A DNA stretch of 52,227 bases. Origin: an uncultured Candidatus Saccharibacteria bacterium. Its GTDB lineage: Bacteria > Patescibacteriota > Minisyncoccia > Phycocordibacterales > JACOZG01. The notes beneath the pieces are model-generated. The model saw nothing but the letters and a program-made list of their open reading frames with translations, was not told the DNA's origin and made no database searches. Of this stretch, positions 16,184-24,865 are shown in pieces. How positions within the stretch are numbered: position 1 is the first letter of the stretch; each line of letters starts with the position of its first letter. Made by a program: the position numbers and the translations under genes. The DNA is taken from assembly GCA_964448295.1 (NCBI GenBank), contig CAYUVV010000001.1, positions 89,838 to 142,064 of the forward strand. Reading direction: 5' to 3'.

Positions 16184-16468
16184 GTGGAGTGGACGGATCA
16201 TCGCTTAAACAAGGTTGAGGCTCTGGTAGAGGAGAATAATAAAATTCTCCGCCGTTTGCAGAGAACGGCACGCTGGACCCAGTTTTTCGTGTTTGTGAAG
16301 TGGGTGGTGATTTTAGGCGCGTCGTTTGGCCTGTATTACTACCTCCAGCCGTTAGTTGACGGTTGGCTGTCGACTTATCAATCACTCTGGCAGCAGGCCG
16401 GAAATTTGGGAGAAAGTTTGCCGTTTTTGGGCGGTTCGGTTGAGGAGAGTTTAACAACGCCGAGGTAG
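16184..16468 (+). CDS. Small single-TM protein with N-terminal coiled coil; stop codon lies inside tRNA-Phe
   Basis: LVEENNKILRRLQR...FVKWVVILGASFGLYYYLQP; TGtTATATT six nt before GTG. Confidence 0.75.
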   Translation: MEWTDHRLNKVEALVEENNKILRRLQRTARWTQFFVFVKWVVILGASFGLYYYLQPLVDGWLSTYQSLWQQAGNLGESLPFLGGSVEESLTTPR

Positions 16469-16534
16469 CTCAGTTGGTAGAGCGTCCGCCTGAAGAGCGG
16501 TAGGTCGCCGGTTCGAGCCCGGCCCTCGGCACCA
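16459..16534 (+). tRNA. tRNA-Phe (GAA)
   Basis: GCCGAGG/CCTCGGC-ACCA, anticodon loop ctGAAga, GGTTCGAG. Confidence 0.97.
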
Positions 16535-21514: not shown

Positions 21515-21829
21515 ATGTCGCTTTTCTTCTTTTTCGCCGTTGGAGTGTTGGAGCTCTTTATTGTCACGGCCTGGACGAAGGTGGTGGTGGGCTCGCGGGT
21601 GGTTATGAGCGGGGCCGTCACTTTTGTTAACGTGCTTATCTGGTATTTGGTGCTGGAGACTATTATCTCCGACATTAATAACTGGCCGCTCGTGCTAGTT
21701 TACGCGCTCGGTTGCGCGCTCGGCACGATGATCGGGGTTTCTTATCTTGATCGTAAAAGCGCGCCGGTGGACGAGATGGCGGACCAGTCGCCCAAACTAA
21801 TCGAACATGAGTCAGTCTCAATCGCCTGA
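21515..21829 (+). CDS. Small three-TM protein, DUF5698-like
   Basis: VNVLIW...LVLVYALGCALGTMIG pattern; start moved to ATG 21515 (longer ORF runs through tRNA-Ser). Confidence 0.65.
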   Translation: MSLFFFFAVGVLELFIVTAWTKVVVGSRVVMSGAVTFVNVLIWYLVLETIISDINNWPLVLVYALGCALGTMIGVSYLDRKSAPVDEMADQSPKLIEHESVSIA

Positions 21830-21858
21830 CGACGTTCCAGATCCCGACGGTAAATCCT

Positions 21859-21888
21859 AAAACGGCTTCGCGTGAGCGAGGCCGTTTT
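21859..21888. terminator. Intrinsic terminator
   Basis: AAAACGGCTTCGC-gtga-GCGAGGCCGTTTT. Confidence 0.7.
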
Positions 21889-21984
21889 ATGGTTAAGATA
21901 TAAAAAATATGAAAAGTTGTGCCAGCGCGAGCTTTACACGTCTAAGCACAGCCAATTAGTTTTAATGTCGCTTTGCTCGGCGAA

Positions 21985-22068
21985 TCCGTTTGGGCGGCAC
22001 GGGAAGGAAAGGGGGTGAGGGAGAAAGGAATTCCCGCGCCGCCCTCGCTTGCCGTCGATACGCTAAAA
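21985..22068 (+). repeat. 84-bp inverted repeat, left copy
   Basis: 80/84 identical to reverse complement of 23497-23580; internal GGGCGGC(A)CGGGAA/TTCCCGCGCCGCCC stem with purine-rich loop. Confidence 0.92.
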
Positions 22069-22069
22069 A

Positions 22070-23485
22070 CTACTTTGAATAAGATAAAGAGTCGATTATC
22101 TTATCAAAAAGTTTTTCAAGAGAAGCAAATTTCGCGTTTGTTCCTTCAAAATGAATGCTCATGCCCGGCCACTTGCTTGATTTCGTCTGCAAAATGGCGG
22201 CTTTGAATGGAATGGATTGTCTTTTGTCGGCAGGAATTTCGCCTTCTCCATATTCGTATTTGTAGGCGAAATTCCCCTTGAAGACGACAACTTTCACTCC
22301 GTTTGAAAGCGTTCGCAAATTACATTCGGTTATCTTTATGTCGTAAGAACCAGAAGAATCAAGATAAGCGTTCTTCTGGCAAGCTGTATCAAGCGATTGG
22401 CCAGAATACTGATAAAGAGGAGGTGAACCTTCGTAAACGTAATTTGCAGTCTTAGAGTTGTCGGCTTCAAATTCTACTTGTGCCGGATCATCCCAAGAAA
22501 AGAGAGGGCTCTTGAACGAGATATTGATAGTTTCAATTCGCGGCTCCGAACCAAACGCGCCGCCAGTTGATTCAACAAGGTTGCCCCAATACTTCGGAAC
22601 TTTAAATGCCACGCCTAACTCTTTGGAAGATTGAGCCGCGAATTGATTGATGTCAATCGGCAACGCTTTTACAGAAGCAAGAATATCCTGAAATTCTGCA
22701 TACTTCTGTTCGTTGAACAGCCCCTTAATCGTCGCGGCGTTCAATGATTGAGCGTTGGCAGGAAGTTTATTGGTTTTCTCCTGATAAACAATATAGATTA
22801 CTCGTTCATTCAAATTCGGGTCCTTGATGAAAACTCTATCTTCCAAAGTGTACTCAACGGGTGTCGTCTTATCTCTCGCGTATGCGTTCACATACGAATC
22901 AGTTAATCCAGTCGCGTAATATCTAACCGCTTCCATTCCGTTTATTTGAAATGGTTTGCTACCGGTTTCATCTTGATAGACATATTGTGGATAATCGTAA
23001 ATCGGAAATTGAGGATTATTTTTCTCAACCTGTAAGGGAATATCATAATGAGGCAAACCATTTCCAAGTCGAATGAAAGCGGAAAAACTTATGCAGTCAA
23101 TCGGGCAAGCATTCCGGCTATATCCGTTCGGATATTGATAGGATTGGAAAAAAATGTTTGGCAACATTTTGCTTCCATCTTCATCTTTATCAAGGAGAGA
23201 AAGTGTTTGTGGATACTGAAAACTTATCGCGGTGTCTGCATCTGTATACAAAGCATGTCCAGCTTTCGGAGTTTCCTGAACTGTATTTACAGAAGTGTTT
23301 GACTGATTTTTAACGATACTTGAATTTTTATAAAAATAATTTTTGTAGACAAAAAAACCAATGACCAACAAAATAATAACAACGCCAGTCAAAGCAAGAA
23401 CTAATTTTGAATTGCCGCTTTTTGGAGTATTGAAATTTGTTGGCGGCAAATTACCAACCTGTGGTTCTTTATTTTCTTCTTCCAT
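22070..23485 (-). CDS. Membrane-anchored surface protein with two PsbP-like domains (AT-rich gene)
   Basis: N-terminal tail + TM (LVLALTGVVIILLVIGFFVY), YTDADTAISFQYP and SKELGVAFKVPKYWG domain starts; start moved to ATG 23485 (471 aa). Confidence 0.75.
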   Translation of the reverse strand: MEEENKEPQVGNLPPTNFNTPKSGNSKLVLALTGVVIILLVIGFFVYKNYFYKNSSIVKNQSNTSVNTVQETPKAGHALYTDADTAISFQYPQTLSLLDKDEDGSKMLPNIFFQSYQYPNGYSRNACPIDCISFSAFIRLGNGLPHYDIPLQVEKNNPQFPIYDYPQYVYQDETGSKPFQINGMEAVRYYATGLTDSYVNAYARDKTTPVEYTLEDRVFIKDPNLNERVIYIVYQEKTNKLPANAQSLNAATIKGLFNEQKYAEFQDILASVKALPIDINQFAAQSSKELGVAFKVPKYWGNLVESTGGAFGSEPRIETINISFKSPLFSWDDPAQVEFEADNSKTANYVYEGSPPLYQYSGQSLDTACQKNAYLDSSGSYDIKITECNLRTLSNGVKVVVFKGNFAYKYEYGEGEIPADKRQSIPFKAAILQTKSSKWPGMSIHFEGTNAKFASLEKLFDKIIDSLSYSK

Positions 23486-23496
23486 ATTTATTGAAA

Positions 23497-23580
23497 TTTT
23501 AGCGCATCGACGGCAAGCGAGGGCGGCGCGGGAATTCCTTTCTCCCTCACCCCCTTTCCTTCCCGCGCCGCCCGAGCGGA
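23497..23580 (-). repeat. 84-bp inverted repeat, right copy (part of element end E2)
   Basis: Reverse complement matches 21985-22068 with 4 mismatches. Confidence 0.92.
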
Positions 23581-23619
23581 CAGTTTTGGGAAGTTCGCAA
23601 AACGCCGCAGGCGTTTTGC

Positions 23620-23776
23620 TCAAAATGGGTTCGCGCTACATTCAGAATATCCCACCAAAAGGAATTTTGCAAATTTTCGGAAGAGGTTGCCTCGCGGCTT
23701 CGCCCCTGCCGAGCGGCGAAGCCGCGAGGCAATGCTTCCGTCTGGCTCAAAAAATTCTGAAAGTTCCTGTTGGTGG
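23620..23776. mobile_element. att-like / recombinase-tail remnant forming an extended imperfect palindrome next to tRNA-Ala
   Basis: 18-bp perfect stem 23687-23704/23715-23732; both outward arms end in TGGTGG (23652-23657 on -, 23771-23776 on +) and match at 21/26 positions. Confidence 0.6.
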
Positions 23777-23844
23777 ACCTAGGGAGAATTGAACTCCCGC
23801 CTCCTCCATGCCATGGAGGCGTCGTACCACTAGACTATAGGCCC
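23771..23844 (-). tRNA. tRNA-Ala (GGC)
   Basis: Reverse complement GGGCCTA...CCTCC-atGGCat-GGAGG...TTCAATT...TAGGTCC-ACCA; A32-U38 typical of Ala-GGC. Confidence 0.95.
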
Positions 23845-23884
23845 GGGTAATACTATTCTACCGAATGCAGGATAGCACAAAACC

Positions 23885-24865
23885 ATGTCGCTCTCAATTG
23901 GCATCGTCGGTCTGCCCAATGTTGGCAAGTCAACCCTTTTTAACGCCCTGACGAAAAAAGGGGTGCCAGCCGAGAATTACCCCTTCTGCACCATTGACCC
24001 GTCGGTGGGAGTGGTGGCGGTACCTGATGAACGTCTAACTCGACTCTCGGTCTTTAGTCAATCGGCCAAAACCATTCCGGCCGCTGTTGAATTTGTCGAT
24101 ATCGCCGGTTTGGTAGCTGGCGCGGCGCGCGGCGAGGGACTTGGCAATCAGTTTTTGGCACACATCCGCGAGGTGGACGCCATCGCGCACGTTGTTCGCG
24201 TCTTTGAAGATGAAAAAGTAACGCACGTGGCGAACAAGATTGATCCGTTGGCGGATTTGGAAACGATCAATCTTGAACTAGCTTTAGCCGATCTTGAAAC
24301 GGTGGAAAAGCGCTTGAATGGTTTAGCGCGCGATGCTAAACGTGGCGACAAGGCGGCGCTGGCTGAAGAAGCGGCGCTTCGGTCAATCAAGCAAAAATTG
24401 GAAAAAGGGGAGTGGTCCGGCCCTAACAAGCCGCCATCGCTCCAACTGCTGACGGCTAAGCCCGTTATCTACGTTTTGAATATTTCGGCGGCGACGGAAA
24501 ATCAGGTGGAAAAAATTAAAACCAAATTGGCTGGGCAGAAAGTGGTGACAGTTGATCCGGTTTTTGACGCCGGCCTCGACGATCTGATTCGCGCTGGTTA
24601 TGAGCTGTTGGGTCTAATCACTTTTTTTACCACTGGGCCAGACGAAACTCGGGCTTGGACGATCAGGCGCGGGAGCACCGCGCCCGAGGCGGGTGCCGCC
24701 ATCCACTCCGATTTTTGCGACAAGTTTATTCGGGCCGAAGTAATTGGTTACGAAAAGTTGCTCAAAGCGGGCGGTTATGCCGCCGCACGGGAGCGCGGCT
24801 GGCTCCGCACCGAGGGTCGCGATTACATTGTTGAGGATGGTGATGTCATCGAGTTTAAGATTTAA
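23885..24865 (+). CDS. ychF: Redox-regulated ribosome-binding ATPase YchF
   Basis: GIVGLPNVGKSTLFNALT, YPFCTIDP, DIAGLV, FFTTGPDETRAW, GDVIEF. Confidence 0.96.
   Translation: MSLSIGIVGLPNVGKSTLFNALTKKGVPAENYPFCTIDPSVGVVAVPDERLTRLSVFSQSAKTIPAAVEFVDIAGLVAGAARGEGLGNQFLAHIREVDAIAHVVRVFEDEKVTHVANKIDPLADLETINLELALADLETVEKRLNGLARDAKRGDKAALAEEAALRSIKQKLEKGEWSGPNKPPSLQLLTAKPVIYVLNISAATENQVEKIKTKLAGQKVVTVDPVFDAGLDDLIRAGYELLGLITFFTTGPDETRAWTIRRGSTAPEAGAAIHSDFCDKFIRAEVIGYEKLLKAGGYAAARERGWLRTEGRDYIVEDGDVIEFKI

Follow-up and report, generated by a model that had tools for sequence, protein, structure and literature searches.

A palindrome behind tRNA-Ala(ggc) in a Saccharibacteria genome is probably the collapsed recombinase module of a small integrative element

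In the genome of an uncultured Candidatus Saccharibacteria bacterium (assembly GCA_964448295.1; 590 kb in 8 contigs, completeness score 100%), an imperfect palindrome of 125 bp is located directly behind the gene for tRNA-Ala(ggc). We analysed this palindrome and its surroundings in a stretch of 52,227 nucleotides, hereafter the window (G000:C1:89838-142064); coordinates without a contig or locus name refer to it. The gene ychF lies divergently upstream of the tRNA gene. On the minus strand, tRNA-Ala is followed by the palindrome, about 70 nt with a small hairpin, an 84-nt repeat, a cargo gene and the inverted 84-nt repeat. The palindrome arms are related to the ends of genes encoding large serine recombinases (LSR), and the relatives of the LSR of this genome carry lineage names of the candidate phyla radiation (CPR)/Patescibacteria. 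The parts of the locus are listed here, with C for contigs, G for genomes, L for fetched loci and X for sequencing runs.

23771-23844, minus strand: tRNA-Ala(ggc), intact, with encoded CCA (ARAGORN; Rfam RF00005, 62 bits)
23771-23776, minus strand: core 1, CCACCA, the last 6 nt of tRNA-Ala; the same core of 5-6 nt terminates the inverted repeats of intact elements
23707-23770, minus strand: arm A (a, type 1), proximal to the tRNA; outer 64 nt of an arm of about 141 nt, assigned by its identity to LSR-flanking arms
23705-23706, no strand: deletion junction, the 2 nt CC between the truncated arms, placed by alignment of the X1 palindrome contig on L151
23658-23704, plus strand: arm B (a', type 2), distal; outer 47 nt of a second arm from an LSR 3' end, assigned by matches to G005, L184 and L157
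23652-23657, plus strand: core 2, CCACCA, inverted relative to core 1 and read from the sequence
23581-23651, minus strand: outer part of arm b, a mimic of a tRNA 3' end toward core 2 (GGGTTCGCGCTACATTCAGAATATC followed by CCACCA), aligning with b' of L151, L144 and L184
23497-23580, no strand: inner portion of arm b; this 84-nt inverted repeat flanks the cargo on its right, encloses a GC hairpin of 14 bp and is 95% complementary to 21985-22068
22070-23485, minus strand: cargo gene, an open reading frame for a predicted membrane-anchored or secreted protein of 471 aa (43-45% GC versus about 51% in the genome)
21985-22068, no strand: inner portion of arm b'; this inverted repeat flanks the cargo on its left and is 95% complementary to 23497-23580
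21890-21984, plus strand: decayed outer b' with a tentative degenerate core 3, TGGTT (21890-21894); synteny with G001 stops at about 21899, and there is a weak likeness to outer b (GATAT.., AGCGCGA)

The palindrome extends from core to core (23652-23776). Its inner stem is perfect over 18 bp (23687-23704 and 23715-23732) and was lengthened to 21 nt at 95% with a 4-nt spacer by an inverted-repeat search. The outer arms (23652-23677 and 23751-23776, 26 nt each) are complementary at 21 of 26 positions; these are the stem and counts already given in the initial annotation of this DNA. Aligned by BLAST to its own opposite strand, the palindrome showed 70% identity over 134 columns (E = 2.5e-11). 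The hexamer TGGTGG at 23771-23776 is the reverse complement of the tRNA-Ala(ggc) 3' end CCACCA. Read from the tRNA, the sequence is CCACCA, ACAGGAACTTTCAGAATTTTTTGAGCCAGACGGAAGCA TTGCCTCGCGGCTTCGCCGCTCGGCA, GG, GGCGAAGCCGCGAGGCAA CCTCTTCCGAAAATTTGCAAAATTCCTTTT, TGGTGG, GATATTCTGAATGTAGCGCGAACCC and onward, in which the core is followed by arm a (64 nt), the junction (2 nt), arm a' (47 nt), the inverted core and arm b. Translated outward, both arms give ..RSREA..WW, in agreement with the earlier reading SREA..WW.

The local score of the region against its own reverse complement was 87 (23630-23789). A thousand dinucleotide shuffles gave a mean of 20.0, a standard deviation of 4.8 and a maximum of 46, which rules out a chance palindrome. 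When the genome was scanned in 160-nt segments on an 80-nt grid, the segments overlapping the palindrome scored 69 and 65, and only one other site scored higher (72). A weak dyad symmetry around the minus-strand core, also described in the initial annotation, was not confirmed: an 11-nt match of 91% was all that could be detected, and we judged it not meaningful. A dyad symmetry of arm a and arm b' about the core was unconvincing too, their common TTCAGAA motif being placed asymmetrically.

Both arms consist of LSR coding ends. Arm A encodes the final 22 LSR codons on the plus strand (AERRSREAMLPSGSKNSESSCWW), and arm B about 17 terminal codons on the minus strand (..RSREATSSENLQNSFWW), terminating in the conserved block TTGCCTCGCGGCTTCGCC. 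No LSR open reading frame is present between the two palindrome arms, where only these 22 and about 17 end codons are left. At locus L151, two arms of 141 nt (124-264 and 1687-1827, 99.3% identical) flank a 511-aa LSR with all three Pfam domains of such enzymes. Each of these arms shows 93% identity to arm A (window 23707-23776) over 70-71 nt, and the C-terminus of the L151 LSR (..AERRSREAMLPSGSKNSESILWW) matches the arm A translation. Further copies related to arm A are located upstream of the LSR start in L144 (97%, 70 nt), within an uninterrupted b'-core-a sequence in L136 (98.7%, 76 nt), on a contig with LSR genes in L152 (93%, 76 nt), behind tRNA-Leu in L134 (94%, 69 nt) and behind tRNA-Ala(cgc) in L168 (92%, 89 nt). 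For arm B, the outer 36 nt are 89% identical to an arm behind tRNA-Val(gac) in the relative G005, and 26 nt show 92% identity to L184 and L157; the copy in L157 is the distal arm just upstream of the LSR start.

The b side of the window aligns with the b' arms of L151, L144 and L184. In L151, the proximal arm abuts a 3' end resembling that of transfer-messenger RNA (tmRNA), and ..TTTCGCGCAAAGTTTAGAATATC followed directly by CCACCA precedes the distal arm. As would be seen in a hybrid site and its attP-like counterpart, the window has tRNA-CCACCA followed by type-1 arm a, whereas L136, L144 and L151 contain an uninterrupted b'-CCACCA with the same arm (arms 93-100% identical). Two proposals of the initial annotation are thereby borne out. 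It had placed an attL/attR-like arm at tRNA-Ala, and the arms indeed are LSR 3' coding ends abutting tRNA 3' ends here and in many CPR genomes. It had also postulated an unsplit attP-like site, which is what b'-CCACCA-a just upstream of the LSR in L151, L144 and L136 would represent.

Our reading, to which we assign a probability of roughly 85%, is that a small integrative element inserted at the 3' end of tRNA-Ala(ggc) and that the palindrome is what its recombinase module collapsed to. Neither the LSR gene nor the inner portion of either arm is left here; 2 nt connect the remaining outer pieces, 64 nt of a and 47 nt of a'. Judged by sequence, tRNA-Ala and arm A would constitute an attL/attR-type junction (site 1). 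Site 2, between a' and b, reads as an uninterrupted b'-core-a in inverted orientation and would be the attP of the element. The other hybrid site (site 3, b' and flank) is clear at a tRNA-Arg gene described below and tentative in the window, where 21890-21984 probably is the far end of the element and core 3 is a tentative assignment. The locus is thus a relic of an LSR element family and not an autonomous member of it. Its cargo cassette is stranded: no cognate LSR of type 1 is present in the assembled genome, where the closest sequences reach 41% identity to the type-1 enzyme.

The plan of the intact element can be seen in the same genome. Using the LSR of contig C3 in a tblastn search, we detected two intact LSR genes, one at C3:67017-68669, ending in tRNA-Arg(gcg), and one at C1:229223-230770, ending in tRNA-Val(cac). 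The C3 enzyme comprises the domains Resolvase, Recombinase and Zn_ribbon_recom, and the enzyme at tRNA-Val shares 76% amino-acid identity with it. Each gene is enclosed by a pair of inverted repeats, 137 nt long and 100% identical. The proximal arm shares exactly CACCA with the tRNA and holds the last approximately 45 LSR codons. The distal arm is located about 60 nt upstream of the LSR start and meets, via the inverted core TGGTG, a second pair of inverted repeats which brackets the cargo (152 nt on C3, 360 nt at tRNA-Val); on C3 the far arm of this second pair again terminates in CACCA. The complete order is tRNA, core (C)CACCA, a, LSR gene, inverted a', inverted core, b, cargo, b', core and flank, where a measures about 105-157 nt in intact elements and a' is its near-perfect inverted copy. 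Excision through the outer cores would give a circle carrying b'-core-a twice in inverted orientation (about 290 bp each for the C3 copy).

Whether the arm occurs elsewhere was a point on which the initial annotation had made its proposal depend, since an arm found only here, unrelated to tRNAs or recombinases, would have spoken against it. Arms are present at many LSR and tRNA ends. When the whole genome was searched with the region by BLAST, as had been suggested for further arm copies, the 26 nt TTGCCTCGCGGCTTCGCCGCTCGGCA of the arm recurred identically at C1:78822-78847. This copy is located at a distance of 35 nt from tRNA-Ser(gga), on its 3' side, and within the 3' coding end (..AERRSREATNPQ..) of an N-terminally truncated LSR gene.

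Most of the 44 tRNA genes of this genome lack an encoded CCA, and about 10 clearly encode discriminator and CCA. At least eight of the CCA-encoding tRNAs directly precede an element arm or an arm-like scar (Tyr-gta, Ser-gga, Phe-gaa, Ala-ggc, Ala-tgc, Val-cac, Glu-ctc and Arg-gcg). Examples are found at 23771-23776 and 16459-16534 in the window and at C1:38476-38562, C1:161750-161826 and C3:67067-67141. The core of the element may donate the encoded CCA to the tRNA gene. Hairpin repeats of the same family as those around the cargo in the window bracket cargo at C3:68865-70595, C1:241626-244036, C1:81860-84792 and C1:161845-166022. A 10-bp hairpin lies within outer arm b at 23597-23619. The 471-aa cargo protein matched no Pfam family, and there were no homologues of the cargo among all fetched loci.

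Read-level information was taken from Logan unitigs and contigs of the runs X1-X5. Aligned on L151, the X1 contig containing the palindrome skips 1572 nt (L151 186-1757) and has CC between the two sides. On its left, the X1 unitig covering 23708-23768 (depth 15) can be continued by either of two contigs. One contains the collapsed junction (23536-23737, 202 nt, 0 mismatches, depth 11). The other is a contig of 486 nt and depth 3.7, the first 30 nt of which are arm A and whose positions 176-440 are collinear with the LSR coding sequence of L151 (1349-1613) at 86% identity and exactly the expected spacing; this minor allele contains at least the 3' part of the LSR. In X3, 241 nt of a 289-nt contig agree without mismatch with 23708-23948, which covers the start of ychF, tRNA-Ala and arm A. 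Beyond 23708, on its left side, this contig does not enter the junction but reads GCCGCTTTGCGCAAGGCGCAAAGCGGCTTA, an intact hairpin of the inner arm. In the contigs of the source study, the collapsed allele therefore coexists with another allele of this locus, in which the inner arm is preserved and, in X1, LSR coding sequence as well. The coexistence of collapsed and recombinase-bearing alleles is the strongest new evidence of our study.

These data also bear on an assembly artefact, i.e. a fold-back of the assembler at the inverted repeat, with the recombinase gene really present in all cells. Inverted repeats longer than k do break and mis-join assemblies, and mirrored contigs of the element family exist (L154, L159 and L182). 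The junction is nevertheless spanned by the independent X1 unitig assembly over 202 nt without mismatch at depth 11; junction-spanning 31-mers are therefore present in the reads, and the depths of the two left neighbours (11 and 3.7) sum to that of the shared unitig (15). We rejected the fold-back on the ground of this independent unitig, and its probability is negligible. The mirror-symmetric metagenome contigs L154, L159 and L182, which show the same recombinase module on both sides of the cargo, are most likely assembler fold-backs at long inverted repeats themselves.

Some observations weigh against the collapse of a recombinase module in its simplest form. All read evidence comes from Logan unitigs, not from raw reads. 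No branch leaves the X1 contig over b, core 2 and arm B (depth 11), from which it follows that the recombinase-bearing allele does not share this stretch. The left junction of that allele could not be recovered from unitig depths and loose ends, the hairpin repeat being common to other loci. Furthermore, arms A and B differ in subtype: their outer 26 nt agree to 81% and their middle parts cannot be aligned, while the two arms of an intact element are about 100% identical. This difference is more than one simple deletion in a standard element can explain.

Two stacked recombinase modules, or an exchange of arms, are therefore likely to have preceded the deletion. The collapse itself may have been an illegitimate deletion aided by the long inverted repeat and by the self-complementary arm hairpins, which provide short direct homology between a and a'. 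Alternatively, it might have been a central deletion, to which long inverted repeats are prone. Either route would remove the gene and leave a shorter palindrome. The fusion point in the window coincides with a short self-complementary motif, GCGGC-TTC-GCCGC, within the conserved 26-nt block. In L184 it lies inside the hairpin loops and combines the 5' half of one hairpin, the loop and the 3' half of the other. The initial annotation had offered inversion, tandem integration or deletion of the recombinase for the fusion of the two ends. Deletion is supported by the X1 and X3 alleles and by the skip on L151; a prior stacking or exchange would be likely in addition.

At the tRNA-Ala locus, G001 from the same genus has the same left flank and tRNA-Ala, between which a different cargo is located (a 774-aa protein with an HsdS-like end region), and no palindrome. 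The tRNA-Ala(ggc) gene beside ychF is conserved in relatives. Twelve more distant relatives contain unrelated DNA behind it, and in 7 of the 12 the CCA is not encoded; their divergence is too great for a clean empty site. The comparison of the tRNA-Ala flank, which had been suggested as a check, thus gave differing cargo in G001 and unrelated DNA in the 12 distant relatives. In G001 this locus (L108, G001:C13:14000-17596) has its different cassette between the gene on the tRNA-Ser(cga) side and tRNA-Ala(ggc). Both G001 contigs break inside tRNA-Ala.

The position of the palindrome might also indicate an RNA element, namely a long 3'-trailer hairpin for termination or 3' processing of tRNA-Ala. 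It begins at the CCA end of the tRNA, and a 371-nt stretch comprising tRNA and trailer (23480-23850) folds better than its shuffles (z = -6.6). A strong fold is however the automatic outcome of an inverted DNA repeat. No U-tract follows the hairpin, the tRNA-strand sequence past the stem being CCTCTTCCGAAAA, and a terminator scan of 21800-24000 on both strands found no terminator-like site. In a scan with Rfam 15 only the tRNA scored, other matches reaching 17-26 bits versus gathering thresholds of 66-79. The arms are remnants of protein-coding sequence near-identical to LSR gene ends elsewhere, a related palindrome is located away from any tRNA (L184), and the sequence downstream of tRNA-Ala(ggc) in the 12 relatives is unrelated. 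Lacking a U-tract and an Rfam family, and with coding remnants for arms, a terminator or processing hairpin was rejected; we consider it very improbable.

Intact elements of the same plan were detected in more than 50 other CPR contigs. Among 75 loci on genome contigs, fetched by the LSR N-terminus, at least 24 have an arm pair around the LSR gene, and many of these also have a second pair around cargo. The 21-mer of the arm occurs in more than 120 metagenome contigs, several of which carry it twice, inverted, about 1.6 kb apart and with an LSR gene in between. The associated recombinases are LSRs of 511-551 aa. Their N-terminus is 92-96% identical among metagenome-assembled genomes labelled as different CPR phyla, which therefore points to horizontal spread. 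In these 75 loci and the metagenome loci, 51 LSR genes face the 3' end of a tRNA or tmRNA, covering 17 tRNA isotypes and tmRNA. At L151 1822-1900, the element abuts a tRNA-like 3' end (TGGTGGAGGTGCGGGGAATCGAACCCC) that was not called by ARAGORN in tRNA-only mode. One tmRNA was called in a combined scan of all loci, which did not report the locus. The family probably targets ssrA too.

The b' arm contains a GTTCGA-like motif which starts 25 nt before the CCA in 17 of 23 loci and 26 nt before it in the window, compared to 21 nt in real tRNAs. This spacing is suggestive of b' acting as a P-type half-site and the tRNA as a B-type half-site.

Arms with differing flanks (window 23687-23732, C1:78822-78847, L115, L130, L138, L147, L159, L167 and L174) all contain the 26-nt block TTGCCTCGCGGCTTCGCCGCTCGGCA, which encodes AERRSREA, with 100% conservation of its DNA sequence. 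The recombinases beside it are only 31-50% identical to the two query LSRs. Because this conservation is too high for a coding tail alone, the block may be a site in DNA or RNA.

Other collapsed palindromes of the type core-a..a'-core are found in L184, L022 and C5:34633-34758. The one on C5 measures 126 bp and is located 89 nt from the 3' end of tRNA-Thr(tgt), with a polarity opposite to that of the window palindrome. Two tRNA-mimic b' arms there face the centre CCACCA-GCCGCCGC-AAA-GCGGCGGC-TGGTGG, a and a' being collapsed to 8 + 8 nt. Further palindromes of about 80-170 nt (L030, L032, L037a-c, L047, L072 and others) have unrelated sequences and do not form one family with that of the window. 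Elements in tandem exist as well (L042). A recurrent unit of 87-94 nt between inverted cores, CACCACAGAAAAATACTCTTT ... AAAGAGTATTTTTCTGTGGTG, was observed in L020, L145, L159, L183 and L195. Its asymmetric interior reads both ways relative to the CACCA...TGGTG ends, in contigs as stored and unoriented against their flanks. It may be a mini-module of another subfamily.

Instead of a relic, the palindrome might be a live pair of sites at which LSRs acting in trans, either the two intact enzymes of the genome or that of an incoming element, flip, swap or capture neighbouring cargo. The two cores have survived together with the 47-64 nt of the arms nearest to them, and half-sites of LSRs measure about 25 bp. 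L184 has the same two arm types and b arm, but its left partner is a b' mimic and not a tRNA, which suggests an exchange at the left core after the collapse. Different cargo is found between the same flanks in G001, and two intact LSR genes are at hand. The LSR is moreover flipped relative to the tRNA at 3 of 54 loci (L013, L049 and L072): the arm that meets the tRNA 3' end there is the one upstream of the start codon, as would be expected if the recombinase module had been inverted. All three contigs however stop inside the LSR gene, so these loci are weak as evidence of inversion and may reflect misassembly of the repeat. Identity between the resident LSRs and the type-1 enzyme is only 41%, the arms of the resident LSRs are different, and no alternative orientation of the locus was seen among the unitigs, the lone joint on 'opposite strands' lying inside the repeat and being ambiguous. 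Live sites at this locus are in our opinion unlikely.

The same doubt applies to a more far-reaching version, in which the palindrome is kept as a compact 'double landing pad' (tRNA-core-a plus inverted b'-core-a) where compatible incoming LSRs would invert, replace or add cassettes. The tRNA 3' ends of CPR bacteria would then be integron-like or shufflon-like platforms working with serine-recombinase chemistry, with the cassette arms mimicking tRNAs and the core donating the CCA; we regard this as improbable. As the relic of a collapsed module, the palindrome is most likely a scar of recent origin that is still polymorphic and serves no function itself.

The parent recombinases share the architecture of Resolvase, Recombinase and zinc-ribbon domains with large serine integrases such as those of Listeria A118 (LI), phiC31, Bxb1 and SPbeta (SprA). 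An attP-like site beside the recombinase gene and a short common core between the sites are further similarities. For LI integrase, the distance of the zinc-domain motif from the centre is reported to be 5 bp greater in attP than in attB (PMC3783163); likewise, the tRNA-like motif is 4-5 bp further from the core in the element arm than in the tRNA target. In contrast to large serine integrases, the target here is the extreme 3' end (discriminator and CCA) of many tRNA and tmRNA genes. The family also carries the attP-like sequence a second time, inverted and inside the integrated element; one attP-like arm is the recombinase's own 3' coding end, and the other mimics a tRNA 3' end. No gene for a directionality factor is evident here, and at tRNA-Ala the recombinase gene itself is gone.

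Islands at tRNA and tmRNA genes and tycheposons are bounded by direct repeats of tens of nucleotides. The elements described here differ in having a serine recombinase, only about 5 nt in common and inverted element repeats. They resemble the tRNA/tmRNA islands of Islander/TIGER (PMC4383910) and the Prochlorococcus tycheposons (10.1101/2020.12.28.424599) as small cargo islands at tRNA 3' ends, in their stacking and decay at the same tRNA and in the variation of the locus among close relatives.

With serine invertases (Hin, Gin, Cin and PinQ; PMC12529663) they share a segment between inverted sites, which in Salmonella holds the recombinase gene. Those enzymes are enhancer-dependent and not tied to tRNA ends, and inversion is hypothetical in the present case. 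Small invertases comprise about 190 aa with a C-terminal helix-turn-helix and use sites of about 26 bp, in contrast to the 511-551 aa found here. In the yeast 2-micron plasmid, FLP and FRT lie inside two long perfect inverted repeats, FLP being a tyrosine recombinase. The hypothetical excised circle would be similar in that two site-containing inverted repeats separate the recombinase and cargo segments.

Derivatives resembling miniature inverted-repeat transposable elements, or solo ends, are a further parallel, as only the terminal inverted parts are left head to head and relics exist in several sizes (window, L184, L022 and C5). In contrast to such derivatives, there is no evidence of the palindrome multiplying: it is present as a single copy in this genome, and only two members of this arm combination were found, the other being the related palindrome with other deletion end points in metagenomes (L184).

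The palindrome by itself is a scar, an ordinary relic in kind but of an unusual family. Full-text literature searches returned no specific description of this family, which falls short of proof, and it thus appears to be an undescribed element family of the ultra-small CPR/Patescibacteria bacteria. The locus shows a decay pathway of the recombinase module caught in progress, with its arms, a 1572-bp deletion relative to the intact relative and both alleles in one population. The share of such elements in a genome of 590 kb also becomes visible, with such an element, or the scar of one, at no fewer than eight tRNA loci. Genome engineers could take an interest in these recombinases for their near-universal natural target. 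For the bacteria themselves, the family may be a main route for accessory genes where few types of mobile elements are known.

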